From positions 1 to 64,000 of the IMG/VR virus record IMGVR_UViG_3300035501_000704: DNA of 64,000 bases. One strand, given 5' to 3'. How positions within the stretch are numbered: position 1 is the first letter of the stretch; each line of letters starts with the position of its first letter. This stretch comes from a virus. Its lineage: Duplodnaviria; Heunggongvirae; Uroviricota; Caudoviricetes. A program made the translations under genes and the position numbers. Shown piece after piece: positions 27,809 to 62,400 of the stretch. The notes under the pieces are model-generated. The model searched no databases. It was not told where the DNA came from and worked only from the letters and a program-made list of their open reading frames with translations.

Positions 27809-29038
27809 TTAAAGACCAACTATGCTCTTGTATAACTTAACTCTATCCTTGCAAACATTCTCTAACGAATATCTCTCAATTACCATCTTTCTTAAATTAT
27901 CCTGCATCTTTGTAACCACGTCAGGATTTTCAACCAAATATTTAATATACTTTGCCCACTGCTTATGGTTTCTTGATGGGTCAACCAATAATGCATTACC
28001 TTCCTCATTCACTACATTTCCCTTCTCCAAATATGGTACAAGGTCAATAGTATATGGGCCGTAATTCTCCGCAATGATGGCTGTTCCTGTAAAACCTGCT
28101 TCAATTACCTTTAATTGGCTCTTAACATAATTAAAATCATTTTCCTTTAATGGGGCTAACAATACGTCTACATTTTCATAATGTGTTCCATATTTTGAAA
28201 TATCTCTCGTCCAGAATCGTCTATAAAAATCATCCTTAAACGGGTCATCCATTCCCTTAACATATTGCTTCAAGAATGATATGTGTTCAGGATTCATACC
28301 TTTATAATTATTTGTAAGATATTCTTCATATCTACACCAAATGGATTCATATGGGGCAATATTTCGTCTTGTAACCTTACCTGTCTTATTATCATAAATG
28401 GTAGTTGTTCCATTTGTATCAAAACCACAAAGAACAATCTGCATCTTATTTCTAACCTCTGTAGGAAGCGAATCAAGCGCTTGAATCATTTGAATATCCT
28501 TCATGTGAGTTGAGCCACAAACCAATCCAAATCTTAGAATAGATGATTTGTTTTTCTTACAAGTGAATTGCTTATCATTTATATCAATGGCATTAGGAAC
28601 AACAACCACATTCTTATTATACCTTTTTAGCTTATTAGCGAACAGGGGTGTTGTGGTTGTAACACAAGTTGCATTTTCAAGATGCTTTACAACACTTTCT
28701 GACCAATGTTCCTTTTGAGATGTGATATACATAGGATGGTCTGGCCCAAGAATAAAATGGTCATCAATATCCAAAATTGTTGGAATGTTCAAGAATTTAA
28801 TTACATCCATAATCTTCAACTGATTATCCAACTGCTTATGAAATTGAATCAAATCATATTTTGATAAAAAAGATGACAAATCACTCTTAGGGAAATCCTG
28901 CAAATAAACAATATCTATATCAAATTCGTCCTTATAATGCTCTTGAATATAGATGTGTGGGTCTCCCTCTCTGAATTTATATACTCCTGTATAATCATCA
29001 GGAACGACAAGCATCTTTATTTTCTTATTTTCTTCCAT
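27809..29038 (-). CDS. GT-B fold glycosyltransferase (GT1/GT4-like)
   Basis: C-terminal E-x7-E-like LKVIEAGFTGTAIIAENYGPY. The 409-aa length is also typical. Confidence 0.45.
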   Translation of the reverse strand: MEENKKIKMLVVPDDYTGVYKFREGDPHIYIQEHYKDEFDIDIVYLQDFPKSDLSSFLSKYDLIQFHKQLDNQLKIMDVIKFLNIPTILDIDDHFILGPDHPMYITSQKEHWSESVVKHLENATCVTTTTPLFANKLKRYNKNVVVVPNAIDINDKQFTCKKNKSSILRFGLVCGSTHMKDIQMIQALDSLPTEVRNKMQIVLCGFDTNGTTTIYDNKTGKVTRRNIAPYESIWCRYEEYLTNNYKGMNPEHISFLKQYVKGMDDPFKDDFYRRFWTRDISKYGTHYENVDVLLAPLKENDFNYVKSQLKVIEAGFTGTAIIAENYGPYTIDLVPYLEKGNVVNEEGNALLVDPSRNHKQWAKYIKYLVENPDVVTKMQDNLRKMVIERYSLENVCKDRVKLYKSIVGL

Positions 29039-29221
29039 ATATTATTATATATTCTACAATTTATTGCTTTATATATAATATATAATGTTTTTTAATCATA
29101 TTTCAAGTCTTTTTACAATAAAAATGATGGAAATCGTATTTTTTTTACAACTTCCATCATCTGATTATGTTTAACAATAATTACTTGTTAAAAAATCATG
29201 AGAATATAACCAAAAACAAAA

Positions 29222-29995
29222 TTACAAATTAAAAATCAATTTATTTGGATATCCTACCGTATAATCATAAGACTTCAATGCTTCCAATGTAGTTAAAGTC
29301 TTAACTTCTGTCTTATGCTTTGCTGTGACATTGTAACATTCAAGTGCATAAACCTCAATTTCACTCAATATCTTAATTACATCATCACACTTCAAAACAA
29401 TACCAGTATCACCCAACCATAATGTAGTTGTTTCATTTCCCATTGACTTTGCAATCGTTGTGGAGTTCATAAGGCCAACTCTTGTTGCTTTATCCAACCA
29501 CATATCTGTGCCATTGAACGAGAATGAATTAACCTCTTCGCTTGAATCATATTTATTGATTGCTCTAAGTAATTTAATCTTCTCACTCTCGACAGTCTCA
29601 TCAATATCAATGTTCAATTGCTTACAAATAGATGTTGCGACTTGCTCTGCAAATTCAACCCAATTTGCCATTCTTTGATAAGCTTCATAATCTTCATCAG
29701 AATTTTCCTTATTAAGAATCAACAATACTTGGTCATTTCCTGAATATCGCATCTCAATAATTGCAGCTAAAATATCTTCATAAGTATTTAATTCTGCAAC
29801 CGGGAATGAAACATTATCCTCTGAACAAACAGCAACCTTATAAGCATTGAAGCTTCTAACAGCCAAATCAGATAAATCAATATCCAATTCCATTGTGCCA
29901 TCTTTCAAATCAATAGGCATTTCTAAACCTACATTAGCCCCATTCAATAAGAATTTACCAGGCTCAGCATATATTTTGTCATTTATTGTGTACAT
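29222..29995 (-). CDS. Hypothetical protein
   Basis: 257-aa ORF. Confidence 0.45.
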   Translation of the reverse strand: MYTINDKIYAEPGKFLLNGANVGLEMPIDLKDGTMELDIDLSDLAVRSFNAYKVAVCSEDNVSFPVAELNTYEDILAAIIEMRYSGNDQVLLILNKENSDEDYEAYQRMANWVEFAEQVATSICKQLNIDIDETVESEKIKLLRAINKYDSSEEVNSFSFNGTDMWLDKATRVGLMNSTTIAKSMGNETTTLWLGDTGIVLKCDDVIKILSEIEVYALECYNVTAKHKTEVKTLTTLEALKSYDYTVGYPNKLIFNL

Positions 29996-30016
29996 TATAT
30001 ATGTAAAAATTAATTA

Positions 30017-31354
30017 TTATTTATTGCTTACGGTTCTACCTAATATCTTCATATAAATATCAAGATTTTTAGATTTTAGAACCAATTCTTTATTTATTTT
30101 CGCTTTTAACTTAGCAATGCATGTCTCTTTTGAATTATGTTTTCTTAAATTATCATCAGAATCGCAATATTCCTTATAGATTGATACCTTGCTTAGATTA
30201 TCATTTGCTATATATAAATATTTAAAAATGAATTCTGAGTTTTTCCATTTGGTGAAAATCTTCGCTCTTATATTAAATGAGTTTCTATGTACCATAAATC
30301 CTAAATACGAATTTAATGTTGAAGCTAATTTATGAATAAGTTCAATATCATTTGGATATTTCTCGAATTCTTCCTTATATTCATCCAATTTATTATACAA
30401 GCTACCAACTGTTCTACTAATAATATATGTTCGATTAGGTTTGATAATTGTGCCAATAAATTGAATGCCCTTCGTTATATCTTGCATATAACATTTATTT
30501 GGATGTAATGTGACACCAAACTCTTTAACTTTCTCCATTATTTTCTTTCTACAATCTTTTAAAAATTCTTTATCTTGAGATATGATAAAGAAATCATCGA
30601 CGTATCTTCCATAATATTTACAACCTAACTCTTCCTTAACCCAATGGTCAAAATCAGAAAGATAAAAATTTGCAAATATTTGAGAAGTTAAATTACCGAT
30701 AGGAAGACCATGATAATCATCACAATAAAACAATGATTTATTCGTTGGTAATCCTTTCCACATATATTTAGGCTGCTTGAACACACAAGACATTGTTGGA
30801 TTATTAAAAACAACTCTATTGATTAACCATAAATTATATTCCAAATCTCTTTCGTTGAATTTTCCTGATTTAGTGAGGAAATTCTTTAATTTATCAAATA
30901 ATATATTTTTATCAATAGACATGAAGAATGATTTTAAATCACATTTAAGAATATATGCTTTCTTTGTATAATTCTCTGTACATTCCTCAATTTGTCTCTT
31001 ACATTGAAGCACACCGTATTCAACTCCTTTATTATCCCTACAAGAATATGAATCATCAATAAAATTATTTTCAAACAAATCATTGGTTCTACCAATAATT
31101 AAATGATGCACGATTCTGTCTCGAAAATCAGCAGCAAATACTTCTCTCTTAACAGGCTTTGTTACAATAAATGTAATACTCTTACCAATTTCATAGGTTT
31201 TACTATTCAAGTCAACCCATAACTTATATAATAAATTACATTCATCTATCTCAAATTTCATTGCATTTGCCGTTTTTCTTTTATGCCTCTGACAATCGTG
31301 GTATGCTGCCACTAATTCTTCAAATGACACGTATTCCTCGGTAAATGTTTTCAT
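30017..31354 (-). CDS. Diversity-generating retroelement reverse transcriptase
   Basis: RT motifs: FAADFRDRIVHH (domains 1/2), LPIGNLTSQIFANFYL with the DGR-specific I-G-x-x-x-S-Q, and the catalytic YVDDF. TR/VR pair immediately upstream. Confidence 0.9.
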   Translation of the reverse strand: MKTFTEEYVSFEELVAAYHDCQRHKRKTANAMKFEIDECNLLYKLWVDLNSKTYEIGKSITFIVTKPVKREVFAADFRDRIVHHLIIGRTNDLFENNFIDDSYSCRDNKGVEYGVLQCKRQIEECTENYTKKAYILKCDLKSFFMSIDKNILFDKLKNFLTKSGKFNERDLEYNLWLINRVVFNNPTMSCVFKQPKYMWKGLPTNKSLFYCDDYHGLPIGNLTSQIFANFYLSDFDHWVKEELGCKYYGRYVDDFFIISQDKEFLKDCRKKIMEKVKEFGVTLHPNKCYMQDITKGIQFIGTIIKPNRTYIISRTVGSLYNKLDEYKEEFEKYPNDIELIHKLASTLNSYLGFMVHRNSFNIRAKIFTKWKNSEFIFKYLYIANDNLSKVSIYKEYCDSDDNLRKHNSKETCIAKLKAKINKELVLKSKNLDIYMKILGRTVSNK

Positions 31355-31470
31355 AACATTCTATTGAATTTAAATGTTTATTATAATTTTTCCACATAGG
31401 GTATTTTTTTTAAATAAAAGATATTAGCTTACAATTTTATTTACAATTTATATTTTCTTCGAGGATTTCC

Positions 31471-31708
31471 GAAGAGCTGGGGGGACCCTCCCCTAAACCA
31501 AACAAACAACAAACTACTAATAATAGAAACTAAAACGGGAAACAACCCTCGCCTCACACGGCGAGGAAAGCTCGCACATAATTGCTATTGTTCTTATTGT
31601 TGTTGTTGACGTTACCACTATTAGTATTCACGTTCCAAGCATTGTTGGACGAATTCTCGGAACTTGACCAGTAATTGTTACCTGTATTCAACGTAACAAC
31701 GGACAACG
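31471..31708 (-). repeat. DGR template repeat (TR) plus shared downstream segment. The mutagenic part is about 31583–31687
   Basis: 238 nt homologous to 33280–33519. Adenine-rich on the coding (minus) strand, with AAC codon runs. It overlaps the listed 107-aa ORF 31554–31877, which is judged non-genuine. Confidence 0.9.
31547..31566 (-). other. GC hairpin (cctcgcc-tcacac-ggcgagg) in the TR copy
   Basis: 7-bp perfect stem with a 6-nt loop in an AT-rich context. The identical element overlaps the stop codon of the VR gene. Confidence 0.6.
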
Positions 31709-31900
31709 TTGTGCCAACTAAATAATTTATTAACACCATATCAAATAAGGTGTGTGGCACCCTTTTCAGATTATACCTCAAAGACTCATTTCCGCAGCAA
31801 TTAAATCCGTTTCCCATGAGACTTATATAACTTTTCGAGTTATATTTTTTATAGACAATATAAACTGCAAACAACATTGTAAACTAATCTCTTTTTTTTA

Positions 31901-32533
31901 TTATCCTTCTATCTTTTTTGCAATATTATTCTCTTTTTCGATTTCTGCTTTAATCGAATTTCTAAAAGAATAAATCTGGCCTAAGACACAACCAATTCTC
32001 TTAGTTAATTCAATAACGTGACTTTTAGGCGCAGCGTTAATAAAATCAAAAATACAAATATAATTTTCAATATCACGCATGGTTTCCATTGCTTCATCAC
32101 TCTTACTGAGCTTCTTATGCTTATTTGCTTCATAATATACAGAACTGTACTGATTTAAAGCTTTCATAAGCAATTTCAAGAAATCATAGCCATAAGCTTC
32201 CTTCATATTACGATTCATGGAATTAAGCATAATTGCAGCATATTTAATCGTGTCTTTAATATCAACATAAATCAACGTATTAAAAGCCTTACGAGTATTC
32301 TTACGCTTTATCTCATTATATTCATCTTCTGATTTAAAATTCTTATCAAAAAGATTTTTCATTTTCTCTTCAGTATTCTTCTTTACTGAATCATTACCAT
32401 TACTAACAGCCTTAGCAATAATATTTCCATCAGGAAGCTTCTTGCTATCCTTATTGTATGATGAGTTCGTCCCCACCAACTTTTCAAGCAGTGAGTTAAT
32501 ACTCATATCTGCTAATTTATGATTATTTATCAT
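31901..32533 (-). CDS. Candidate DGR accessory variability determinant (Avd-like)
   Basis: Lies between VR and TR as expected for avd. It is Lys-rich and basic. At 210 aa it is longer than typical Avd. No sequence motif confirmed. Confidence 0.35.
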   Translation of the reverse strand: MINNHKLADMSINSLLEKLVGTNSSYNKDSKKLPDGNIIAKAVSNGNDSVKKNTEEKMKNLFDKNFKSEDEYNEIKRKNTRKAFNTLIYVDIKDTIKYAAIMLNSMNRNMKEAYGYDFLKLLMKALNQYSSVYYEANKHKKLSKSDEAMETMRDIENYICIFDFINAAPKSHVIELTKRIGCVLGQIYSFRNSIKAEIEKENNIAKKIEG

Positions 32534-33236
32534 AATCTATAAAAATTTAAAAATTATTATTTTATAATCTATATGGCATTTTATTTACCTCTAATAATAA
32601 ATATCATCAATGTTCAAAAAATTCAACTACATTGCGATATTTTTTAAATAAAATGTAATATTTTTTTTATATTACAGAAGATAATACTATTTTTATATTA
32701 TCTATTGTGTAATCTGTTTCAATTACGAACTGTTATTTTCCATTATAAATTCCTTTATATATAATATACTAAATAAATAGTATTTTTCAAGTGTAAAATG
32801 CTAATTTTATGAAACTTTTTTCTATCTAAAATCATTATAAATTTATAAAGTGTTATATATCAATGATATACAAAATGAAATTATAGTAAAATTTTTTTCT
32901 TATTTAATAGATTTTTTCTGAATTTTATGTTTTAAATGGTGTAATTTCGCTTATTATTTATTACAATGTTTGTTTTATTCGTTTATTTTCGCAATAAAAA
33001 CAAAAAAATATGCTTATGTAAAAATACACAAGCATATCTAACTTTTACAAAAATATTTTTAGCACTTTACAGCTCTTGCTTACAGATTTAGCACATTTAC
33101 GCGATTTTATCGGGTATTAAAGCCTCAACGAGACATTGCAAATGTACTAAAATAAATCCACAATCTCAAGTAAATCTACGATTTTCTAACATAAAGTGTG
33201 GATAATTTAAGGAAATTTTATATAAGAACTAATATC

Positions 33237-33258
33237 CCCGCTCCGTTAAGGAGCAGGG
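33237..33258 (-). other. GC-rich hairpin just beyond the end of TR/VR homology
   Basis: cccgctcc-gttaa-ggagcagg: 8-bp stem with one mismatch inside a long AT-rich intergenic region. Confidence 0.4.
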
Positions 33259-33279
33259 ATGGTATGAAGTGGCTAAGCT

Positions 33280-33519
33280 GAAAAGCTGGGGGACCCTCCC
33301 CTAAACCAAACAAACAACAAACTACTAATAATAGAAACTAAAACGGGAAACAACCCTCGCCTCACACGGCGAGGAAAGCTCGCACATAATAGCTAGTGTA
33401 CTTATTGGCGAAGTAGTTGACGTAACCACTAAGAGTAAGCACGTACCAAGCATAGCTGGACGAATGCTCGGAACTTGACCAGTAAAGGTTACCTGTAATC
33501 AACGTAACAACGGACAACG
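33280..33519 (-). repeat. DGR variable repeat (VR) at the 3' end of the target gene. The variable part is 33391–33495
   Basis: Identical to the TR except for about 20 substitutions, all at TR coding-strand adenines, plus a 3-nt length difference. Confidence 0.9.
33355..33374 (-). other. GC hairpin overlapping the target stop codon (candidate cruciform downstream of the IMH)
   Basis: cctcgcc-tcacac-ggcgagg. It encodes the terminal ...FLAV* residues. Confidence 0.6.
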
Positions 33520-36500
33520 CCGGGTACTTCTTCGCAATCGCCGACAGTATGGTATTCAGCCTACCCATTCTTGGAATGATGTATGCCAATTCTCCGATAG
33601 CGGGAAGATACCAATCACCCTGTTGAGTGCCGACAACGCCTTCATCACCTGACACGTGATAACGCCAGCAACAACATGCGGCAGGATAATAGTTTGCCCC
33701 CGAACTGTTCTTGATGGTCTCAGCCAGATGCCAGTACATTTGCGACAACGCATAGTTGAGAATCTTCTCCGTATTACCAGCGCCATCCAAATCGCCACAA
33801 GAATTATTTGTAGTGTTCGCATCGTAATATCCTGACGCTCCTGACGCTAAGTCCGTCTCGTCCCTTGTCTCTGCGGATGCGTTGGTATAATAATATGGAT
33901 TCGGATAATCCGTCATCGTTCCGTCCTTTATAAGGTAAGGATTTTGACAAGCACCTGAAATTGAAGTGGTAGTAAAATCACGGTAGTAATACAAATTATC
34001 GGCATACGTTCCTTCCGTATTGTGGAACGTCAGATTTCCGTTATAATTCGTTTCGCTACCCATCTGAGAGCTATAATCTCCTAACTTCTTGTACAATCTT
34101 GGTGTTTTATTCTTATTAATAAGTTCAGGAATATCAAGTGTACCATATCCACCCCAAATAATACCACATCTTGAAGTACCACTTGTGCCAGCGTCAGGTG
34201 TGTTGTAACTCATTTCGTTGAGTGACATAATTCGAGCCGTACCAGCATAAGACTTATCCGTACCGCTATAAGATTCATTCGATAATCTTAAAGTATGACG
34301 CTTAGGAACAACACAAACACCGATAGGCAATTTACCAGTTGGGATTTCATCAATGGTTGAAACTAAAGAACCATCAGAGCAATAAATCCATCCGAAAGTA
34401 TCCAAAGCTTTTTCGCCTAAGTAAATGGCTCTTGTAACTGTAAACAATTCATCACCCATTGCGGGAACACTGCCACTTAAAACAGAATCATAAATGGTAG
34501 CTGTAAGTCTAACCGTCTTAATATCATCAGGGAACTTAGCACAAGTTAATCTAATTGAAGCATATTGATAATCTTCATCAGTATTATCCTTCTGATAATA
34601 ACCCATAGTTTGTCCTAAGATATCTGATGTTAAATAATCCTCATCATCAACTGACCAAACAACATAATAAGGTTTATTAACTAATGAGTTAATAGCTAAC
34701 TTATAATCAACCTTCGAATCCGTTGTAATAGAATCCAAAATAAATTCACCCTGAATAGAGGTAGAATTAGTATCAAGTGTTCTAAACGCATGGAAAATAA
34801 TTTTTTTCGAAGGATTATAATAGTTACCACTCTTATCCATAAATTGTGCAGTAAGAGTTACCTCACAATCTTCTGTCATGCCATAGGTACCACTATTAGT
34901 TAATGTAACAGCACTCGTGCTATCACTATCAGGAGTTAATGCCACAAAAGCATTATTATCAACTGACCATGAAACATCTCCGTCAATATCAATAGCATAA
35001 GTTGCTAAAGAATACTTTTCAGATTTCATTGCTTCCAAATCATCGGAACCGAAAATTGTATTATAAGGATTAATAAAGTTAAAGGCTAATCCATCAATCT
35101 CATTATAACCAGGCCAGAATGAATTTATCTTATCGGCAATATTCTCTTCAAAGTCAGTAACATTGATTGAACCAGTCAAAGATAAAGAACTTACTTTACC
35201 TAATACAGTAGTATATAATTCTTTCAATTTATCAGAATCAATACTCCAATAGATATTAGAAATAGAAATTGTCTTTGCAGATAATTCATATTTACTTGTA
35301 TCAGTATTACCGGAAGTATTTCCTGAAGTTGTAGCTGAGGTAGCATACTTTTGAATATTATTATACCAATCAAGAATCCATTGATAATTATATCCAAAAT
35401 AATCATTTGTATTATCAGGATTACCATCACATACAATCGTTATTGATTCAAGGCCTACATAATTTTTCAACAATAACTGTTGCATATTACAATTAGGGGC
35501 CTTATTGATTGTTAACGTAGTCAAAGAAGATAATGACGGTAGTGTAACATTCTTCAAAGAGTTAGATTGTGGAAGCTTAACTTCAGAAGAATGGGTATTC
35601 TCAAGATAAACTGTCTTTAATCTATAATAATTTGTTAAATCAACAGTAGAAGACAATGTTGTAACATTTGACAAATCAAGTTTCTCAATTGTTTGTGGTA
35701 AAGTTTCAATATCAGTAATATTAAATGTTGGGTTTGTACCACCACCAATGAAAGATGTTACACGTTTTGAATTAAACTTTAATGACTTATTAACAACACT
35801 TGGACTAATAAACTTATTAGACCAGTCACCCATATCTGACATATATTCAATACCAACAATAGTAGATGTGTCGGTTGAACCATTGTTAGGCAATGTTAAT
35901 GCCACCTTTCCACCAGGACTCAACAATGTTGGGTGATTCTGCTGATAATTATTCTCGCCTTGCAAAGAATATGCATACATATGTGCTGCGGCTGTTACAG
36001 TAACACTATTATTACCACCACTCAATGCATAACCGAATTTATTCAAACCATTAGAATACATTGCAAATGTTTTCATAAAGAAAACTCTCATCTTAACATA
36101 TTGCTTCTCTCCTTCCAAACAATCACCCATAGACATTGTTATAGGGTTTGAGTTCTTTGAAATGTTAAATGCCTCAACTCCACTTTGATTTAATATTTCA
36201 GCCTCTTCATATAATAATCTTGCGGTTTCATTATAAGCAACAGCTGGGAAATAATTTTGAACAGAGAAATAATATCTATTAAAACATCCCATGATACTAT
36301 CGTTGTCAATAATATATGAAGAGTTTGAACCAAGGCTTGACATTGCTCCAATCATTTTATTCATGATTGTTCTAATTGAAGGAGTGTCTTTGACATTTCT
36401 ATCAATAAAGTCTTGCAAATATACATAAAGCAATGTTCCATAGTATCCACTGTTATTTGCAGTAAAATAATTTACAGTATTACCCTTATCATCCTTATGT

Positions 36501-39500
36501 GTTGTATAATATTCAGCCCAATAAGGTTTATCCTTCATACCTTCATTATTGATACGGAAAATCGTATCATCATCATCACGCCATGGTCTAATTTTCGGTC
36601 TACCAACAGTATTTATTGTTTTATCAACTAAGAAATATTGATTTTTCGATAAATTATCAGATGCGGCAATAAATAATGTAAAACAGAAACATAAAAGAAC
36701 TTCTTCTATATCTACATATTCATTAATGTTAGCACGTAACTTAGCGGCTCTTGCTCTTCTAAAGATAGTTGTTTTGTTGGCGGTGCTTAATTGATTGAAG
36801 GCAGTCAATCTATCACCATCCATAGAACCAGTTAAGCCACTTGTACAACCAGAATAAACATTAGGAATTGAACCATTCTCTTTAAAGATGTTTTCTGTAA
36901 AATACCCATCTAAGTCTTCAATAAGGTCTAATTTTGCTGAAATTGTATTACCTTCTTCATCTTTTGTTGTACCAGCATCTACCCATACATAATTGACATA
37001 ATCATGGCGCATGGCATAATACTTACTATCTGTCGTATCATAATACCAATACTGATATGTCTTATCAAGGTTTTTAAGATTAGAAAAATCTGAGCTAGAA
37101 GTAGCCGAGCATCCAGAAAGTCTATGACTGCATGAATAAACAAAATTCAAATAATCTTGTACATATCCAATTGAAGCATCGTTACCTAATTCAAGGTCAA
37201 AAGCTTCTTGTGATGTACTTCCACCATTATCATCCTTTCTATTGAATATAAATTCCTCTTTTCCATCAAATTTTACTTCATCTGTTAACCAAGGGCTATG
37301 GCAAAGTGTAATAGGACATTCCTGATTAGAACCGCCAACCATTAGCATTTCAGGTGTCTTCTTCTTATCATATCCGAAAGTGGCTTTATCGCCCTTACCA
37401 GCTCCCCAAGTCATAAGGCCATAAAACACAGGAGCAGAATCTGTAGGAGTCTTAACAAAGAATAAGAATTCATCCTCTCTTACCGACATTCTTGATAATT
37501 CAAGTCCTTCAGTTTGCTGAATTTCACTCTTAAATCCTAACAAATTACGTATATCCTCATACATTCTCAATGAACCTTGTTTATGGCTTTGCATTGAAGA
37601 CGCATAATTAAGCTTGCCAACAAGCTTTGTTGCCTTTGGTGTTACAGCCACATATTCTCCAGTTGAAGAATCTTCCTCAGAATAAACATAATAATTATGG
37701 TCTGGAATTTCTTGGCCATATATATCAAGATAAGAGCTATTATCACCAAACTTCCATGAACCATTCCACTTATAATATGTTTTTGCTGTGGAACCTTGAC
37801 CCTTACAAATGGCTTTTTTAATTATACATGAATTAACTGTATCAACTTCATAATTTCCATCAGCATCTTTAGTTGATTTCACATATCTTACTGTCAAATC
37901 ACCTTCTGTTCCATTTTCTTCATCAAGTTTATTGATATAGCAAGGATATGCATCACCTTCCCAAAGTAAAGTTCTATATTTCTTACAAGCTTCTGCATAA
38001 GAAATTTCATTACCAACTGAAGTAATATCATTTCTATCACTAAAATCTTGCTTTTTTGCTAATGAGGGTAATGAAGATAGATAATCCTTTTGAATTTCAA
38101 CCGAATCAAGACGTGTATTTTGATATATTCTAATACCATACAAATCAACGTCAGCTGTATCTGAACCAATAATAATACTATTAACACCATAATGAATATT
38201 ATTTGAGCCAGGGTTATACAAATACTCTCTATTGATTACACCATTGATATACATACGAACAATGTTCTTAGTATAATCCGTACCATTTATCGAAAGAGTA
38301 TAATCAGGTAAAATATTCAAAGCTAAATGTGTTCGTGTGTCTTCTTGATATTCAACCTCCTTTGTTAATAATACACCATTTTGATTATTCAGTAAGAAGT
38401 AAGCAACATTAGGATACATTGATAGTCCTTCCATTGTAGAACCGCTATCAACACTATGGCTAGTTGCTAAATTGATTACAATATTTGAATCATCTGATAC
38501 ATTTCTAATTGCAAAATCAACTTCAACTGTTATAGGTGATTTTAAATTTTTATCTTCAAAAACATTATATGGAATATTTACTTTTGAGCCAGCAAGAATT
38601 CTAAGGCACTTAGAACCATCACTATCAGCAATCCAACCGCCATTCAACCAGTCCATATTCGTCCAAGTTGTTCCTGTTAATGCATCGCCATTATATTTGT
38701 TGTAAATGACTTCTTTGTCCGCATCAATATTAGAACGTCCTTTTGGAGAGAAAATAAAGCCACCAGCCATTTGTGTTGGTGAATAATTTGCCTGAGAATT
38801 GATAAAGAAAGTTGATTGTGCCAAATATTCAGTATTATTGTCAATTGCCACAGTACTATTAGCATCATAAGCCCTCATAATAGCTGTAACGCCAGTCACA
38901 CCTTCATTTAATTCAATTTCAGTTTGTGATTTAAAGTTGTTTACAATACCAGATTTAACATCGGATTCAGTATATTCAGCATACTTTTCAGAAAAATCTT
39001 CATTCCATAAAATAAACTTAATATCAGCTGTTGTTTTTCCATAAATCGCATAAGAAAAATATGTATTTTCTGCCCAGTTATAAATTGTGTTTGATGCATT
39101 GTTTATAGACAATTTTAAATCTGTAGAATCAGCTTTTAACACACAAAATTGAAATTCAAGTTTATCTGTTTGCAATGTTTCATTTACATAAGCAAATGCA
39201 GTACCTGTGTAGTTTCCTGGGCGCAATGTACTACCCAATGGAATATTTGTTGTTTTCGTACCGACCAAACTACCTTGTGAATGTGTACATGGAATGCCAT
39301 CAATATAAGAAACGGTAAATTGGTTTTCTCCACCGTCTTCCAATTCATTTATTGTAACATATAAAGTCTTTGAAAGCACACCAGTAGTGTTAAATGAAAG
39401 GCCACCAGGATTATTTTCATAACGAATAACCTTAATAGAGTCATTACTATATGCTAAAGTAAGAGTTGTATATGTTACAGTATACTTAGCTGAGTTTGAT

Positions 39501-40147
39501 GCATTAGAATCATCAGCAGACCAAGTTAAACGCACCTGAGTTGTTGTATCGACAGATATAAAGTCACTAATATCATATTTCTTAAAACCAGCATCTTCTG
39601 CTGTTTCAATAGACGATACATAAGCAACGCTTCTTTTTTTTGTGAAATAAGAACTTCCTTCAGATGCGGTATAAACTGTAAGTGTACCTGATTTTTCTAC
39701 AATCTTTGCTTCCGCATCAGCAGGTGTTTTCAAATAATACACAGGTTTAATTGTTGCATATACCTTACCGTCAATTGTTGTAACAGTAGTATTACCACTA
39801 GTGTATAAATAAGCAGATTCCTTATTGACTGTTGCAACAGCTTCAAGCCCAGGAATCACACAGCTAAACAAAGCATTGTTGCTGTAGCTCTCTTTATCTG
39901 AAACCCAGTCCTCATAACTCTTTTGGTCTGCAAAACCAATAAGATACATATTATTATCTGTATCACCACTAGTAACTGTAGTATATCCAACTTTTGTGTC
40001 AAGGGCACTATTACAATCTTTGATTTTTTGCTTGATAAAGTCCTGGATAGCTTTACCACTAAACGGAAGGCTATTATCTTCTTTATCACAACCCCAGTCT
40101 TGTTCAAAAGATGTAAGTGAATTATTGCTAGTTTTTCTTACCGCCAT
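33362..40147 (-). CDS. DGR target: a giant 2261-aa fibre or receptor-binding-like protein with a C-terminal DUF1566/C-type-lectin-like variable domain
   Basis: The VR lies in the last about 45 codons (...YWSSSEHSSSYAWYVLTLSGYVNYFANKYTSYYVRAFLAV). There is an LRR-like segment (LDLSNVTTLS...LKNVTLPSLSSLTTLTI). The rest is Thr/Ser/Asn/Tyr/Gly-rich, fibre-like. Confidence 0.85.
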   Translation of the reverse strand: MAVRKTSNNSLTSFEQDWGCDKEDNSLPFSGKAIQDFIKQKIKDCNSALDTKVGYTTVTSGDTDNNMYLIGFADQKSYEDWVSDKESYSNNALFSCVIPGLEAVATVNKESAYLYTSGNTTVTTIDGKVYATIKPVYYLKTPADAEAKIVEKSGTLTVYTASEGSSYFTKKRSVAYVSSIETAEDAGFKKYDISDFISVDTTTQVRLTWSADDSNASNSAKYTVTYTTLTLAYSNDSIKVIRYENNPGGLSFNTTGVLSKTLYVTINELEDGGENQFTVSYIDGIPCTHSQGSLVGTKTTNIPLGSTLRPGNYTGTAFAYVNETLQTDKLEFQFCVLKADSTDLKLSINNASNTIYNWAENTYFSYAIYGKTTADIKFILWNEDFSEKYAEYTESDVKSGIVNNFKSQTEIELNEGVTGVTAIMRAYDANSTVAIDNNTEYLAQSTFFINSQANYSPTQMAGGFIFSPKGRSNIDADKEVIYNKYNGDALTGTTWTNMDWLNGGWIADSDGSKCLRILAGSKVNIPYNVFEDKNLKSPITVEVDFAIRNVSDDSNIVINLATSHSVDSGSTMEGLSMYPNVAYFLLNNQNGVLLTKEVEYQEDTRTHLALNILPDYTLSINGTDYTKNIVRMYINGVINREYLYNPGSNNIHYGVNSIIIGSDTADVDLYGIRIYQNTRLDSVEIQKDYLSSLPSLAKKQDFSDRNDITSVGNEISYAEACKKYRTLLWEGDAYPCYINKLDEENGTEGDLTVRYVKSTKDADGNYEVDTVNSCIIKKAICKGQGSTAKTYYKWNGSWKFGDNSSYLDIYGQEIPDHNYYVYSEEDSSTGEYVAVTPKATKLVGKLNYASSMQSHKQGSLRMYEDIRNLLGFKSEIQQTEGLELSRMSVREDEFLFFVKTPTDSAPVFYGLMTWGAGKGDKATFGYDKKKTPEMLMVGGSNQECPITLCHSPWLTDEVKFDGKEEFIFNRKDDNGGSTSQEAFDLELGNDASIGYVQDYLNFVYSCSHRLSGCSATSSSDFSNLKNLDKTYQYWYYDTTDSKYYAMRHDYVNYVWVDAGTTKDEEGNTISAKLDLIEDLDGYFTENIFKENGSIPNVYSGCTSGLTGSMDGDRLTAFNQLSTANKTTIFRRARAAKLRANINEYVDIEEVLLCFCFTLFIAASDNLSKNQYFLVDKTINTVGRPKIRPWRDDDDTIFRINNEGMKDKPYWAEYYTTHKDDKGNTVNYFTANNSGYYGTLLYVYLQDFIDRNVKDTPSIRTIMNKMIGAMSSLGSNSSYIIDNDSIMGCFNRYYFSVQNYFPAVAYNETARLLYEEAEILNQSGVEAFNISKNSNPITMSMGDCLEGEKQYVKMRVFFMKTFAMYSNGLNKFGYALSGGNNSVTVTAAAHMYAYSLQGENNYQQNHPTLLSPGGKVALTLPNNGSTDTSTIVGIEYMSDMGDWSNKFISPSVVNKSLKFNSKRVTSFIGGGTNPTFNITDIETLPQTIEKLDLSNVTTLSSTVDLTNYYRLKTVYLENTHSSEVKLPQSNSLKNVTLPSLSSLTTLTINKAPNCNMQQLLLKNYVGLESITIVCDGNPDNTNDYFGYNYQWILDWYNNIQKYATSATTSGNTSGNTDTSKYELSAKTISISNIYWSIDSDKLKELYTTVLGKVSSLSLTGSINVTDFEENIADKINSFWPGYNEIDGLAFNFINPYNTIFGSDDLEAMKSEKYSLATYAIDIDGDVSWSVDNNAFVALTPDSDSTSAVTLTNSGTYGMTEDCEVTLTAQFMDKSGNYYNPSKKIIFHAFRTLDTNSTSIQGEFILDSITTDSKVDYKLAINSLVNKPYYVVWSVDDEDYLTSDILGQTMGYYQKDNTDEDYQYASIRLTCAKFPDDIKTVRLTATIYDSVLSGSVPAMGDELFTVTRAIYLGEKALDTFGWIYCSDGSLVSTIDEIPTGKLPIGVCVVPKRHTLRLSNESYSGTDKSYAGTARIMSLNEMSYNTPDAGTSGTSRCGIIWGGYGTLDIPELINKNKTPRLYKKLGDYSSQMGSETNYNGNLTFHNTEGTYADNLYYYRDFTTTSISGACQNPYLIKDGTMTDYPNPYYYTNASAETRDETDLASGASGYYDANTTNNSCGDLDGAGNTEKILNYALSQMYWHLAETIKNSSGANYYPAACCCWRYHVSGDEGVVGTQQGDWYLPAIGELAYIIPRMGRLNTILSAIAKKYPALSVVTLITGNLYWSSSEHSSSYAWYVLTLSGYVNYFANKYTSYYVRAFLAV

Positions 40148-40177
40148 AATATTACTATAATTATTTATCTATTTATC

Positions 40178-40354
40178 TCAATTATTATTCTTCCAAGGAG
40201 AGTCATTTTTCCAAGGATAAGAATTTTGCCAATATCCTGCCCCAAAACAAGAAGAAATGGCTTGCCAAACTAAATTTGCTCCTTTATATATATAAAGAAT
40301 AGCTTTCTTGCCATAATATCTTGCTTGAAGCTCACTTCCATTACGATATATCAT
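40178..40354 (-). CDS. Possible 58-aa Trp-rich small protein (not in ORF track because under 60 aa)
   Basis: Its ATG overlaps the TGA of the upstream ORF (ATGA). It ends 30 nt before the target gene start. It contains the repeat PWKNDSPWKNNN. Confidence 0.25.
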   Translation of the reverse strand: MIYRNGSELQARYYGKKAILYIYKGANLVWQAISSCFGAGYWQNSYPWKNDSPWKNNN

Positions 40355-40581
40355 TCTTCATACACATTATATTCGACATCCTCGTCAACATTATCACCCA
40401 ACTTTGCATATTCCTCTTCAGTTAAATAAACCTTAGATTTAATCAATTGGGTTAATTTATCGGCTACTGTGTCCTTATTTTCTCTTGTTGAAGTATCACC
40501 TTCCTTATAAGCAATTTCATTTGATTCTGCCACAAGATGTTCAACAGTCTTTGCTGTTAATTTATCTGCAAGATTTATCAT
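40351..40581 (-). CDS. Small acidic hypothetical protein
   Basis: 76-aa ORF. Confidence 0.4.
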   Translation of the reverse strand: MINLADKLTAKTVEHLVAESNEIAYKEGDTSTRENKDTVADKLTQLIKSKVYLTEEEYAKLGDNVDEDVEYNVYEE

Positions 40582-40626
40582 AATTCTATTAAAACTAATT
40601 TCTATTTTCTTATAACATTATTAAGG

Positions 40627-41379
40627 TTAACTTACAACCAGATTCCAAGTATTCTCACTTAAAGCATTTAAAGTTCTATAACACTTATATTTTCCACTAT
40701 AATTGTCGCCAACATAAGAAATAGTCTTTACATCACTACTCAAAGTAACTTCAAATCCATCACTCGTAACCTTACTAATATTTAAGTTGCTTGGAACAAT
40801 AATCCAAATATATTGTCCTGTTCCGGTCTTAATTTTAGCATTAAAAGAAGAGCCAGTTGTTATGGTATGAGTTAAACCTACAATCAAGTCAGATAATGTA
40901 GAATCATTAACAGATTCTGATTCAGAAGCTCCGTAATGAACCACATATCGAGTTGTAGAACGAGATGCACTTGTTCTACCTTCCTTAGCAGCAGTAATCT
41001 TATACGATAAAATGTTAGAATCAACCTCTGTTGTAATCTTTCCACTACTTTCTTTTCCATCATAAATTGTTTCACTATTTTTAAAAATAGAAACAGTATC
41101 AGGAGAAAAAGTCTTACCATTTTCAGTAACACTCCACTGTAATGTATCCGTATCACAAGAAGAATTTGTTGATGCACTAAACGAAACATTGATTGGAAAG
41201 ACTGAATCCAACAACTTTTCAATCTTTTCTAAATTATCATCATGAGCTTGCTGCAACTCATCCAATTTAACGTTAAGCCTCTTACCATTAGCGTCATACA
41301 CGGCAGCTTCAGCTGTAAAAGGGGATATTAGCCCACCTGACTTATCACTAAGCTGCTTAATAGTAGTCGTTGTAGCCAT
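40627..41379 (-). CDS. Hypothetical protein (Ser/Thr-rich, possibly structural)
   Basis: 250-aa ORF. Confidence 0.5.
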   Translation of the reverse strand: MATTTTIKQLSDKSGGLISPFTAEAAVYDANGKRLNVKLDELQQAHDDNLEKIEKLLDSVFPINVSFSASTNSSCDTDTLQWSVTENGKTFSPDTVSIFKNSETIYDGKESSGKITTEVDSNILSYKITAAKEGRTSASRSTTRYVVHYGASESESVNDSTLSDLIVGLTHTITTGSSFNAKIKTGTGQYIWIIVPSNLNISKVTSDGFEVTLSSDVKTISYVGDNYSGKYKCYRTLNALSENTWNLVVS

Positions 41380-41504
41380 TATTATAAATTGATTTTTATA
41401 TAATATAAATATTAACTCACGTTGATTTCAGACGAAAATGATAACAATTTGCTTATTTAAGACAATATATTTATATTTTATATATAATCATTTGATTTTA
41501 TATT

Positions 41505-42278
41505 ATGCCAAAGAAAAGAGGTAGAAAGAAAAAGCGAGGCCCTAAGAAAAAAAAGCCAGTTGTTGTTCACAAATACGTTGGATTAAAACGCCCATACCAT
41601 ATTATCACATCCAATAATGGGATGCAAATTAAAGATATATATTCAGGGGTTAATATCGAATATGCTTTAAACAAATTAAAGGAATTGCAAAAAGAATACA
41701 ATAAAGATATTGTATTCCCTGTTAGATTTATATCAAATAAGAAAGAGAAAACATTTATTGAATGTGATTATAAACTAATCCTCATTAAGAAAAGAACCGA
41801 TGAGCCTAATGAATATGAAGGTAAAGTAAAAAATGAATTTGGCAAATATGTTGATTGTGTAACAGATAGTGAACATTGGATTTTTATTGATGAATTACCA
41901 TATCAAATTGAAGAAACATTTTGGGTATATGGCTATAATCCTAAGAGACAAAGAAAAACATTCAATTTTATATTTGATAATTTAATTCAATATAGTGAAA
42001 AAAATAAATATTATTTTAAGGAATTGGTCGTTTTTAAAAATAAGCTATTGATTAACTCAAACGATGAATTTAATATGATTATCTGTAAGAACCATAAAGA
42101 TAGTGTAAGACTATATAATAAGATTCATGAGGTAGCAGATAATAAAAAGATAAAATATTTGGTATATGGTGGCGATATACAAAAATCTTCCTATTCATTC
42201 CACATATGGTATAATAAAATTAAATCATTAACCAATTGGAATAATAGGAAGATAATGAAAAATACCACAAGAGATTAG
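41505..42278 (+). CDS. Hypothetical protein with a polybasic N-terminus (KKRGRKKKRGPKKKK)
   Basis: Lone plus-strand gene within a minus-strand block. Confidence 0.5.
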   Translation: MPKKRGRKKKRGPKKKKPVVVHKYVGLKRPYHIITSNNGMQIKDIYSGVNIEYALNKLKELQKEYNKDIVFPVRFISNKKEKTFIECDYKLILIKKRTDEPNEYEGKVKNEFGKYVDCVTDSEHWIFIDELPYQIEETFWVYGYNPKRQRKTFNFIFDNLIQYSEKNKYYFKELVVFKNKLLINSNDEFNMIICKNHKDSVRLYNKIHEVADNKKIKYLVYGGDIQKSSYSFHIWYNKIKSLTNWNNRKIMKNTTRD

Positions 42279-42284
42279 AAAGTA

Positions 42285-42659
42285 TTATTCAATAACTTTA
42301 TTATAAAACTTTTCTGATAATTCTACAATAGACTTTATATCTTGTTCTGAAGGATGTTCAAAATCAATATTGTCAAACTCATGTAGAGATTGCTTAATTA
42401 CTTCAACAAGTTTATCTTCTTTTCCTTTAATATCTTCATAATGTTCGGCAACAATTTTTGCGACAACACCGGAAGCTATTCCAAGTTCATTATAAAGTTG
42501 TTTATCTGCTAAATTGCTATCATCATAATCATAATCTTCATATTCAAAGAATAATTTATAATAAATGTCACTCATCATTTTAAGATGCTCAACAGAAATA
42601 TTACAATTATTTTTCATTACGCCTAAAAATTCATCAATCCAATTTTCATTGTTTTTCAT
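42285..42659 (-). CDS. Hypothetical protein
   Basis: 124-aa ORF. Confidence 0.4.
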   Translation of the reverse strand: MKNNENWIDEFLGVMKNNCNISVEHLKMMSDIYYKLFFEYEDYDYDDSNLADKQLYNELGIASGVVAKIVAEHYEDIKGKEDKLVEVIKQSLHEFDNIDFEHPSEQDIKSIVELSEKFYNKVIE

Positions 42660-59422: not shown

Positions 59423-62400
59423 TTATTTGTTGTTATCTAAATATTCTTGCATCTTTTCAGCTGCCATCTTTACATATGTTGTACTTGTTCCTTTCTGAAT
59501 AACAAGCGCACTTAAATATATGGAATTTTTAGAGCTTGTATATCTTTCATATATAGTCTTTTCAGTAATGAAACTGTTAATTCTATATTGTTCTGATAAT
59601 GTTCTTGTATAATAATTTTTCATACCTTCTACAATATTAGAACTATATGATTGATAAATATTATAAGCGTCTGCATCTGCAATCCAATCTGATTTACTGA
59701 ATCTACCACTATTTGGGAATGTAATTGTTGAATCAGATTGTAAATCAGCACCATATTCAACCAAATCCCCAGCCCATCCACAAAGGTCTCCAAAACCATT
59801 ATATAAACCATTTACAGCAGCCCAGAAATGAGGCAATTCAAGAACCTCTCCATTAGGTAATGATAAAGTTGATTGTGTTGCAAAATCCTTATACTTTGTA
59901 TCAAGATATGATGTGAAGGTACTATCTAATGTTCCACAAGCAATGGTCCACGTCGTTCCTGTATATGTCTTACTTCTAATGTATTGAGCCATTGCCATAT
60001 CAGTATTTGTAGAAACGTCATAGGTGGATTTATTTGCATCTATATCAGCTCTTAACAGTTGTGCTTGCGCAATATAATTACTGAATTTCGTGCTACCTGA
60101 TTCCCATATACCTTCATCTTTCCAATAGAAATAATTATGCCAAATACCTTCATCACCATCATTATCATTCAATGTATCATAATCATATACCCAATTGAAT
60201 ATATTCATATTTAAATTAACTCTAACGATAGCTGTAGATGGGATTAACTGTTCAACATAAGGCATTACCTTATCCTGAATATACTTAGCTTGTTCTTGGA
60301 ACTCTGTAGAATAGAAATCGTCACCTTTTAAATAAAAATCAATTTCAATTACCTTAGTATTGATAATCTGATTGGTTACACCATCAGCATTTTCTTTTTG
60401 ATTCACAAAATCATAATTTGAATTTCTACTAATAAATTTACTTGAATCTAAATCATATTTTATCTCATTGCCATTTACATCCATTGTAGTCACAAATGAA
60501 TGTACTTTACCATCCTTATTCAAATATTTAAAGTAATTATATCCATTTGATGAAGTTAATCCACTAAAACCAATACTATTTATTTCTTCCATTGTATCAT
60601 CTGGAGTAGTAAAACAATTAGTATTGATTAAATTATTATCATAAGCGTATTTAAACAATCTATCAAATCTTGATATATATTCATAACCATTATCATAAGA
60701 GAAACATCCACTATGAGGATTATTACCTTTATAGTTATCAACAATTGTATTTAATCTAATATATTCAGAATTATTCTTTGTTAATTGAACCCATCCATTA
60801 GAATTCAATCTTCTTGAATAATCCTTATTAGCTAATTTGAAGTAATTTGTTGCAATAGTCTTATCACTATTACAACTTCCACTAATGAATATCTTTGTTC
60901 CAGAGAAAATAGTTTCACTTTCATTTACCTCTTGTGCTCCTAATGTACCCTTTGATACTCTTTTCTTCTTTAATGCACCACCTTCCCATACAGTTATCTC
61001 CAATCCTTTCTCACTATATCCTCTAATATAGAATGGTTCTGTGTCATCAGGCTGATAATATATCTTGATGATAGTTCCATCAACACATTGAGTTAAATCA
61101 TAAGTAACAGTTTCGCCACTATAATTCTTTGTGTCTATATATTGATTGAAATAATAATCACCAATACTCGTTCCAAACAGTTTGACTACAATCTTAAAAT
61201 AATAATAAATATTATTATTTATTACTTCCTGAGCCAATTCATAAATTCTACCACCAATAACAGCATAATTTGTTGATAAGTCAAGGACATAGAATACAAC
61301 ATTATCTTCAAGAACTGAACTTCTCTGACTTAATAATTCAGATAGATTCTTTACTTGTTTTACGTTTCTATATGTTTCCTTATTTGTTTTTCCAATACTA
61401 TTAGGAATCAAAGTTGAACTAACATCAAATGAATAAGGCCAATAATCAAGCCAACCGCCATTCATTTGATAATACATTCCACCATCATAGATACTATCAC
61501 TATCAAAGTTAGGATATAATCGTCTTTCATTGACTTTATTATCATCATCAATGTAACTATCATCAACATCTCTATATGCTATCGGTAATCCTTGGTATGA
61601 TACATATTCACCATTGATATATGTTTGTGTATTGTAAGAAATCTTCTTCTGTGAATTATAAAAATCAATACTATACATATCATGAACGCCATCCCATGAC
61701 TCCTTGATAGGTTCAACAAAAGCTGTATATTCAGTTATATCAAAATCGTATGGCGCTTTATCTTCAATGTTATAATATTTGCTATAATACTTCTCACCAA
61801 CTCTTGTTGTGTTTAAAGCGTCAAACCATCTCTTACTTCTATAGCCAAATAATGATAATAATGATTCAATAGAATCAATTGTTCCTTTCTTTCTTAATAT
61901 ATAACGAGAATTCATTTTTAATCTCTTCATGAACTCATTGTTAATATTAGGAATGGTATATTCAGTTTGATTGCTATAATCCTTAATAATGTTTTTTACA
62001 CTACCATTTTCAACGTAATATTCCGAACTATCATTATCTTCTGGTACAGATAATAATGTTGGTTTTCCATTCACACAAGCCTGATAGAATTCACCTTCAC
62101 TATAACCATAAGGATAAATTATATCTTGATTATTTTCATAGAATGAACGTGTATATGTATTCCCTGTTTGTAATTCATCCCATTGATATCTTTCATCACT
62201 ACCAATGCTTGCATCCTTATTTTCTTTTACTTCATTTCCTTCAGAATCTGTAAATTTCAATTCAAATGGATATATGGTAGTAGTTTCCCAACCATCTAAA
62301 GATAATGCATCAGTTAAAAAATAATCAGGAATATTTGAACGATTGTCATAAGAAATACTATTCACATTTCCAATGGTATCAATATATGATTTCTCATTAT

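Follow-up and report, generated by a model that had tools for sequence, protein, structure and literature searches.

A complete BPP-1-type diversity-generating retroelement with signs of recent activity and a 2261-residue target in an uncharacterised AT-rich phage

Introduction

Can a diversity-generating retroelement (DGR) be recognised part by part in an otherwise uncharacterised phage, and can assembled contigs tell whether it has recently rewritten its target gene? We address this question for a 64,000-nt stretch of tailed-phage DNA, positions 1 to 64,000 of the IMG/VR record IMGVR_UViG_3300035501_000704, which is called the window below. To our knowledge, no natural system other than DGRs hypermutates proteins in a targeted way in prokaryotes and their viruses. 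A preliminary description, made from the letters of the window, proposed that it holds such a cassette with a target gene, a variable repeat (VR), an avd-like accessory gene, a template repeat (TR) and a reverse transcriptase (RT).

We find that the cassette is very probably a complete DGR of the BPP-1 type that has been active recently. The assignment follows from the DGR-type RT, the adenine-specific differences between TR and VR, the Avd fold in the canonical position, the VR at the C-terminus of the target, and the BPP-1 gene order. The activity is read from the comparison of assembled sequences. The cassette is a clean further case of a well-known system and holds no new principle, and its nearest described relative, the DGR of Bacteroides phage BS-TP1, is already published. 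As a natural example, from an AT-rich phage not otherwise characterised, it is well documented, and contigs supply what usually needs experiment: turnover of the VR only, on an identical background, co-transfer of neutral TR markers, and the gain of a codon within a run of AAC. What stands out is the natural co-transfer of markers and the long 3′ extension that the two repeats share.

Results

Substitutions between the repeats are confined to template adenines

The cassette and its features lie on the minus strand, in the order target gene with VR, AT-rich gap, Avd-like gene, TR and RT gene. This is the order of BPP-1, as had been claimed, and each component of the proposed set was tested and found present and intact. 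The map of open reading frames (ORFs) bears out the coordinates given earlier for the RT gene (30017-31354, 445 aa) and for the target gene (33362-40147, 2261 aa).

TR (31582-31713, 132 nt) has 46 adenines in the span 31708-31582 and 17 AAY codons in the VR frame. VR (33390-33524) forms the last ~53 codons of the target, and the positions that vary between alleles are 33390-33499. Repeat finding and alignment extend the full pair to TR 31713-31480 and VR 33524-33288. Compared position by position without gaps, the two copies differ by substitution at 21 of 60 A positions and at none of 174 non-A positions. In the 127-nt span 31708-31582 there are 18 substitutions, each of them at one of the 46 adenines (hypergeometric p = 8.6e-10).

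The earlier claim that all differences between TR and VR lie at template adenines thus holds for every substitution, and one 3-nt insertion in VR falls outside it. This insertion gives VR one codon more than TR and falls within the TR run AAC-AAC-AAC (VR 33413-33411). A minority of DGRs have in-frame indels beside AAC repeats, which have been put down to template slippage (PMC5758913), and the codon gain seen here is consistent with such slippage.

Read in the VR frame, TR encodes ...NTGNNYWSSSENSSNNAWNVNTNSGNVNNNNKNNSNYVRAFLAV*. Its adenines are placed at codon positions 1 or 2 in 47 cases of 51, and AAY makes up 17 of the 52 sense codons. TR had also been called adenine-rich. Its variable part is 42% A against 25% in VR, while the whole strand itself is 37% A; the contrast is with VR and not with the genome. 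No second VR or other copy of the repeat is present in the 64-kb window. We rejected a 107-aa ORF over TR (31554-31877, minus strand) as a real gene, for its similarity to the target and to Lcl_C is confined to the TR-derived part; we read it as a by-product of the repeat.

Three alleles of the variable repeat point to recent transfer

Contigs of the same phage were found by exact-protein look-up in several JGI and Logan samples (L005 in JGI 3300043080; L012 in 3300035502; L019 and L024 in 3300035520 and 3300035521). Together with the window, five contigs make six VR-bearing sequences, and these hold three VR alleles. A search with an A-degenerate VR pattern in one JGI metagenome contig collection gave no match, though JGI contigs with the VR exist elsewhere.

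L005 and L012 show no difference from the window in 9,044 nt (42542-33500), which include the rest of the target gene. In the next 110 nt (33499-33390) they carry 20 substitutions and one codon of difference, all at TR-A sites. In this second allele VR has the length of TR, and 23 of 23 TR/VR differences are at adenines. Over 9.3 kb, VR is the only difference between L005 and the window, apart from a cluster at the end of the L005 contig.

L019 and L024 belong to a 97.8%-identical strain with a third allele, and in L019 21 of 21 TR/VR differences are at A. The TR of this strain differs from that of the window at four non-A positions (31659, 31653, 31647 and 31497), and all four are found in its own VR. 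We suggest that this co-occurrence is the natural equivalent of a marker-transfer experiment, and it fits copying from TR to VR.

TR itself is invariant within each strain: the TR and avd region is 100% identical in L001 and L013, and TR is unchanged in L001, L012, L013 and L014. Altogether the TR of the window recurs unchanged in five other contigs of its strain. Between them, the first two alleles hit 26 different adenines of the variable span, and each of these is a first or second codon position. T is the most usual replacement of A (10 of 18 and 10 of 20), and dATP is the nucleotide that the BPP-1 reverse transcriptase, bRT, most often misincorporates (PMC7826257). Adenine-specific variability of VR, by which the preliminary description proposed to check its reading, is therefore seen among independent contigs. 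The turnover of VR beside a constant TR points to ongoing TR-to-VR transfer.

Could the cassette be a fossil, intact in sequence and no longer mobilising, with the VR alleles as old persistent variants? Only three alleles are known, and two of them each recur unchanged in two samples (L005 and L012; L019 and L024), as such a fossil would allow. Against this stand the two window-strain alleles on 9,044 nt of otherwise identical DNA, the remainder of the target included, which makes the VR change younger than any other mutation there. Also, after 2.2% of strain divergence the VR and TR of L019 still agree at each of the four non-A sites specific to the strain, while RT, the Avd-like gene and TR are intact and TR is conserved. 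Hence, we consider a fossil element very unlikely.

A second alternative is that TR is a decayed duplicate of the target 3′ end, that the VR alleles arose by recombination between strains, and that the RT is unrelated to both. The 61 TR/VR substitutions over the three alleles all lie at adenines, with none at the ~174 other positions, and no neutral or recombinational process predicts such a restriction. VR variants with non-A differences that match other strains were not seen. We give this explanation practically no credence, and return to it below where the RT and the 3′ extension bear on it.

Two observations on the contigs themselves may be added. The first 105 nt of L005 (window 42543-42638, in the N-terminal part of ORF 42285-42659) hold nine differences that are not adenine-specific; this cluster is either a contig-end artefact or a recombination boundary. 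Several independent assemblies are interrupted within the TR/VR repeat, with contig starts at 31483-31509 (L002-L004) and 33397 (L001) and a contig end at 33307 (L005). Such breaks are expected of a repeat with a hypervariable copy, and DGR cassettes of this phage are thus usually fragmented in metagenome assemblies.

The reverse transcriptase is of the DGR type

The RT matches Pfam RVT_1 (1e-20) and PHROG 1423 'reverse transcriptase' (1e-87). The DGR signature reported for it is present, with LPIGNLTSQ at residues 217-225 (IGNLTSQ at 219-225) and YVDD at 251-254. The motif [I/V/L]GxxxSQ is the signature of DGR RTs, while QGxxxSP occurs in group II intron and retroviral RTs (PMC7826257). Arg70 and Ile219 align to R74 and I181 of bRT, the two residues reported to promote adenine mutagenesis (PMC7826257).

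Among all PDB sequences the best match is BPP-1 bRT (8ub7 series, E = 2.9e-29). It is ~22 orders of magnitude better than the matches to group II intron (6.5e-7), retron-like and Drt3a (4e-4) RTs; 8bgj is matched at 1.4e-7. Such proximity of the nearest solved structure speaks against an RT that stands by chance beside a duplicated target end. Generic RT profiles (group II, defence-associated RT (DRT) and retron) do match, which would suit an unrelated enzyme, but they match weakly: the non-DGR models of NCBIfam stay far below their cutoffs (group II TIGR04416 83 of 300 bits, retron St85 62 of 235, Drt3a 62 of 200). In a Rfam scan of 29000-42000 at E <= 1 only two chance-level matches were returned, and no group II intron or retron RNA was found. 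PADLOC gave generic or partial RT matches only, and none for the neighbouring genes.

We therefore reject a group II intron RT (motif IGxxxSQ and not QGxxxSP, sub-cutoff profile, no intron RNA in Rfam), as well as a retron or defence-associated RT (DRT, Abi; sub-cutoff profiles, PADLOC matches only generic, no retron RNA in Rfam). The enzyme, whose clustering with group II intron or retron RTs would have spoken against the first description, groups with neither in the PDB, NCBIfam and PADLOC comparisons. By sequence it is closer to DGR RTs than to the other RT classes.

With tblastn against phage genomes, the RT finds the DGR-bearing Bacteroides phages F2, F4, Bacuni_F1 and BS-TP1 at 36-40% identity, and Bordetella phages are among the matching records. 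Its family exceeds 7,979 proteins at E < 1e-20; the nearest relative other than itself is 63% identical and the bulk ~50%. A search for related loci with the RT in viral, genome and metagenome collections gave no confirmed relatives.

An Avd-like protein stands in the canonical position

Between the target and TR lies a gene for a 210-aa protein (31901-32533) with a predicted four-helix bundle at residues ~87-209 and an N-terminal extension of ~85 aa. Residues 1-81 are Lys-rich and disordered or of low confidence in the AlphaFold2 (AF2) model. The helices (87-104, 108-134, 138-164 and 170-209) have a predicted local distance difference test score (pLDDT) of ~90. A Foldseek search of the PDB with this model returns the 2gsc pentamer family first, then 4dwl, the Avd of BPP-1, and then the Avd chains of 8ub7, all at probability 1.00 and with template-modelling (TM) scores of 0.84-0.91, normalised to the target structure (for 4dwl, TM 0.88 and root-mean-square deviation 1.7-1.8 Å).

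At the sequence level little is detected. NCBIfam DivGenRetAVD is matched with E = 1e-5 over profile positions 3-101 of 104, but with 25.8 bits against a cutoff of 80. There is no match to Pfam bAvd, and none among PDB sequences with either the single sequence or a profile. A word-indexed search finds the protein itself only. Exhaustive HMMER over 1.84 billion representatives finds three remote relatives; one of these, of 123 aa, has a weak match to the four-helix-bundle / 23S-rRNA-IVP family, of which Avd is a member. Sequence alone does not support an Avd-like protein; the modelled fold and the place in the cassette do so together with the gene for a four-helix bundle that BS-TP1 has in the corresponding position.

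An AT-rich non-coding spacer (32534-33233, GC down to 16%) separates the target from this gene, so that VR and avd are ~830 nt of AT-rich non-coding DNA apart. After the target gene, outside the repeat, there is a terminator-like hairpin with an 11-bp stem (33234-33260). Promoter-like sites occur upstream of avd, for instance at 32863-32834 with 11 of 12 matches.

The gap may also hold a small transcription unit of ~130 nt at about 33135-33000, with a promoter-like site at 33169-33141 and a terminator-like hairpin with a 15-bp stem and a T-run at 33039-33006. In this unit the window differs from L001, L012, L014 and L015 at five linked positions (33143, 33136, 33110, 33101 and 33062), and for L001 (12.9 kb) these are the sole differences from the window. 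Rfam gives no match for the unit. We rejected covariation as a sign of a small RNA here, for the five linked single-nucleotide differences form no compensatory pairs in the predicted fold.

The variable repeat ends a giant target protein

The C-terminal ~300 aa of the target are a module of the DUF1566/Lcl_C type. Pfam Lcl_C is matched at residues 2175-2257 with 28 bits, below the cutoff of 34.9 bits, and a profile of the module matches 4eps_A (E = 4.5e-4). The AF2 model of the last 299 aa has a pLDDT of 49 and is too poor for a fold search. From these similarities, a C-type lectin fold of the variable domain is likely.

A search with the last 299 aa gave 578 homologues, 35-43% identical. The majority stand alone as proteins of ~300-350 aa. 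Among the homologues, annotation as PF07603 (Lcl_C/DUF1566) is frequent, and many come from contigs 100-180 kb long. From the stand-alone homologues it follows that the giant protein of the window carries at its end, by fusion, a variable-domain module that is widespread.

Two observations set the module apart from the rest of the gene. The region 33200-34100 has 41-50% GC against ~30% in the genome. The same module is the most divergent part of the gene relative to L019, with 18-36 differences per 500 nt against one in 37500-38499. This suggests that the C-terminal module was acquired or exchanged separately.

Residues 1 to ~1530 of the target are homologous to gp27 of BS-TP1 (26-27% identity, tblastn), and PHROG 24896, a family of unknown function, matches residues 173-1171. 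An exact look-up of the 2261-aa protein shows that it is not on record, as is expected for a variable protein.

What is this protein for? From the syntenic BS-TP1 cassette we infer a tail or receptor-binding fibre. The other possibility is that the DGR is real and that its giant target is a different virion-surface protein, an injected protein or one that acts on the host. The cassette had been placed in a phage structural region, a placement that the window does not support: PHROG and Pfam scans of 37 ORFs in it gave no clear structural gene, and beside the cassette a tail, baseplate or capsid gene cannot be recognised. Next to it are genes for a glycosyltransferase, a dUTPase and a Band_7/lipoprotein-like protein, along with unknowns, and the N-terminal 2000 aa of the target match families of unknown function alone (PHROG and Pfam). 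A fibre is nevertheless favoured by the homologous gp27 of BS-TP1, which adjoins genes annotated tail fiber, baseplate hub and tape measure. Further points for it are a homologue of the C-terminal module that lies three genes downstream of a portal-like gene on a 101-kb phage contig, with no RT nearby, and the DUF4376-like gene flanking the cassette, which has a weak match to a tail-fiber PHROG. The authors of PMC12694917 also regard DGR targets of ~2000 aa as tail-related. On balance, we hold a role other than that of a receptor-binding tail fibre to be possible and somewhat unlikely.

The two repeats share a long 3′ extension

Identity of TR and VR extends 102 nt beyond the last mutagenised A, past the stop codon and through two hairpins. 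The constant segment lies at 33288-33389 on the VR side, where it resembles the initiation of mutagenic homing (IMH) element, and at 31480-31581 on the TR side, where it is IMH*-like and starts the TR-RT spacer. A GC-rich segment and hairpin 1, with a GC stem of 8 bp, stand directly 3′ of the last mutagenised A (hairpin 1 at 33375-33354 for VR and 31567-31546 for TR); in VR the loop holds the stop codon of the target (33364-33362). Hairpin 2 (GGGGAGGGTCCCCC; 33301-33288 for VR, 31493-31479 for TR) is within the constant segment on the VR side. The DNA fold of the VR-side segment has z = -4.8. Beyond hairpin 2 the copies diverge at differences that are fixed in both strains. An exact-pattern scan of IMG/VR for the hairpin segment gave no match.

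The extension is A-poor, and its 11 adenines are essentially unmutated (P ~ 8e-6 under the VR mutation rate), so the boundary of mutagenesis at ~31582 is real. At the same time its two copies show concerted evolution: both repeats of L019 carry the strain marker 31497 T>C, which lies 85 nt beyond the last mutagenised A. Just two TR/VR differences occur in the extension, and both are adenine singletons, 31524 A>T in L012 and 31521 A>G in L019, each on a VR allele otherwise identical to that of L005 and L024, respectively (chance ~0.012).

Concerted evolution of the extension, with a marker outside the mutagenised span, is also what can be said in favour of TR as a mere duplicate that recombines, since gene conversion between 230-nt repeats could yield it. 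The adenine restriction, which that explanation does not predict, leaves TR-to-VR copying by a DGR as our reading. For the extension itself, the same data are explained by ordinary gene conversion of the repeats together with coincidence.

In the 102-nt TR/VR-identical segment, hairpins included, no IMH/IMH* distinction is visible, and identical IMH and IMH* have been noted for some DGRs (PMC5758913). We raise, as a doubtful suggestion, that the homing tract or recognition element of this lineage reaches far beyond the boundary of mutagenesis. Synthesis or integration of cDNA would then begin close to hairpin 2, and the first ~100 nt would largely be spared adenine mutagenesis; or else cDNA would be integrated in short patches. 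If either were true, donor and recipient would be told apart by a rule unlike the IMH/IMH* rule of BPP-1. Both gene conversion and extended or occasional short-patch homing could account for the pattern in the extension.

Several points weigh against the picture of a recently active BPP-1-type DGR that varies a lectin-like fibre, and they should be seen together. Three alleles are few, and activity is read from assembled contigs, not from cDNA, transcripts or within-sample variation. The Avd-like protein fails Pfam bAvd, stays far below the NCBIfam cutoff and has three detectable sequence relatives. The C-type lectin fold of the target domain has a poor AF2 model and a sub-threshold Lcl_C match behind it, and the window itself gives no evidence for a tail-fibre role. 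Unlike in BPP-1, the 102 nt after the mutagenised part are the same in TR and VR, and a feature that distinguishes donor from recipient is not visible.

Discussion

Proposed mechanism

If the cassette works like its homologue in Bordetella phage, the avd-TR-RT unit would be transcribed, and the RT together with a presumably pentameric Avd-like four-helix-bundle protein would reverse-transcribe the TR RNA. C, G and U would be copied faithfully, while random nucleotides would be inserted opposite adenines. The resulting cDNA would take the place of VR in the 3′ end of the gene for the 2261-aa target. As the outcome, ~26 or more adenine-encoded positions, nearly all of them positions 1 and 2 of AAY codons, would be re-randomised; they fall in the last ~37 variable codons of what is probably a ligand-binding domain of the DUF1566/Lcl_C type (C-type-lectin-like). 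The RNA intermediate, the priming and the details of integration are proposed by analogy. If the target is a tail or receptor-binding protein, the payoff would be adaptation of the host range.

Comparison with known DGRs

BPP-1 (mtd-VR/avd/TR/brt) is similar in more than gene order. The window RT keeps the equivalents of R74 and I181, [I/V/L]GxxxSQ and YxDD, the changes are A-to-N only with A-to-T the most frequent, and a GC-rich segment with an inverted repeat follows the mutagenised region. The target, however, is a 2261-aa protein with a DUF1566/Lcl_C-type domain in place of the small Mtd. The Avd-like protein has 210 aa, with the ~85-aa N-terminal extension and almost no sequence similarity, VR and avd are separated by the ~830-nt gap, and the RT, 445 aa long where bRT has 328, carries an insertion between residues ~155 and 212 and is extended at its C-terminus. 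IMH and IMH* are distinct in BPP-1, and there the inverted repeat does not follow TR (PMC5758913), whereas the window has hairpins at both TR and VR.

The DGR of BS-TP1 (PQ571274) consists of the target gp27, the four-helix bundle gp26, TR, the RT gp25 and the DUF4376 protein gp24 (PMC12694917). It shares with the window the gene order, a target of ~2200 aa with a C-terminal VR, an extended Avd-type gene (171 aa), TR, RT and DUF4376, and two small ORFs lie upstream in both. Protein identity is 26% for the target, 36% for the RT and 45% for the DUF4376 C-terminus. The repeat blocks of BS-TP1 are offset by 3 nt (spacings 835 and 832), which suggests that TR and VR differ in length by 3 nt there too. 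The two cassettes differ in that BS-TP1 lacks the target-avd gap, its TR is read through in the annotated RT ORF, and its TR/VR homology ends ~25-30 nt after the last mutated A, with non-identical ends. GC content and host probably differ as well.

BS-TP1 has a second DGR-like locus (record 77864-80613), where gp76 carries the annotation of a DUF1566-domain protein and the note of the nearby gp79, annotated 'tail protein', lists PHROG 1423 (reverse transcriptase).

Targets of category d, with DUF1566/CLec2 domains as in Legionella LdtA, have large N-terminal extensions in about half of the cases (Wu et al. 2018, PMC5758913). The window resembles them in that its VR overlaps the weak DUF1566/Lcl_C match at the extreme C-terminus. 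In-frame AAC-adjacent indels and identical IMH/IMH* are documented minority features (PMC5758913). It differs from them in that this match is below the Pfam threshold and the pLDDT of the AF2 model is as low as given above.

A 308-kb contig of a gut jumbo phage (L017) carries a cassette of DUF4376, a 319-aa Lcl_C target, a 134-aa bAvd and RT. Its RT is 51% identical to that of the window, its TR can be aligned at the DNA level, DUF4376 is again a neighbour, and its target is 34% identical to the last 299 aa of the window target, including the ...YVRAFL(R/A)V end. Here the target module is a stand-alone protein of ~320 aa, in contrast to the fusion in the window, the Avd is short and weakly recognised by Pfam bAvd, and the shared 3′ extension measures ~55 nt.

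Genomic context

Directly downstream of the RT, on the minus strand, lies a DUF4376-like gene (29222-29995; Pfam DUF4376 E = 1.6e-4, PHROG 1807 tail fiber E = 3.7e-4). Its C-terminal half is 45% identical to BS-TP1 gp24 (L009 3506-4156) and 36% identical to L017 7400-8002. Three phage genomes that are otherwise unrelated thus have a gene of this type beside the DGR cassette. Instead of being there by chance, its product may work together with the target, for example as a fibre or assembly protein.

Against the first 100 kb of the 111.7-kb BS-TP1 genome, the window shows similarity only in target, RT and DUF4376. Megablast of 29000-41500 against INPHARED phages gave no match, nor did a tblastn search of phages with three large proteins encoded nearby, joined end to end (621, 340 and 816 aa). 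The giant target-Avd-TR-RT-DUF4376 block, shared with BS-TP1 while the rest of the window shows no similarity to it, appears from these comparisons to be an exchangeable module. Such a cassette, together with the stand-alone ~300-aa domain elsewhere, bears on how host-range modules spread among gut-type phages.

The 90%-identity cluster of the RT includes a 123-kb contig, and the phage is thus a large one. Other genes of the window encode PhoH-like, dUTPase, SbcC-like, primase and glycosyltransferase proteins, and most ORFs have no PHROG or Pfam match. In the glycosyltransferase ORF (27809-29038) lie the sole three differences between the 6-kb contig L002 and the window, within 46 nt (28514-28559). 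A 1477-aa ORF (59423-63856, minus strand) has no PHROG or Pfam match, and over its C-terminal ~195 residues it shares 38-40% identity with a region in Prevotella Lak megaphages.

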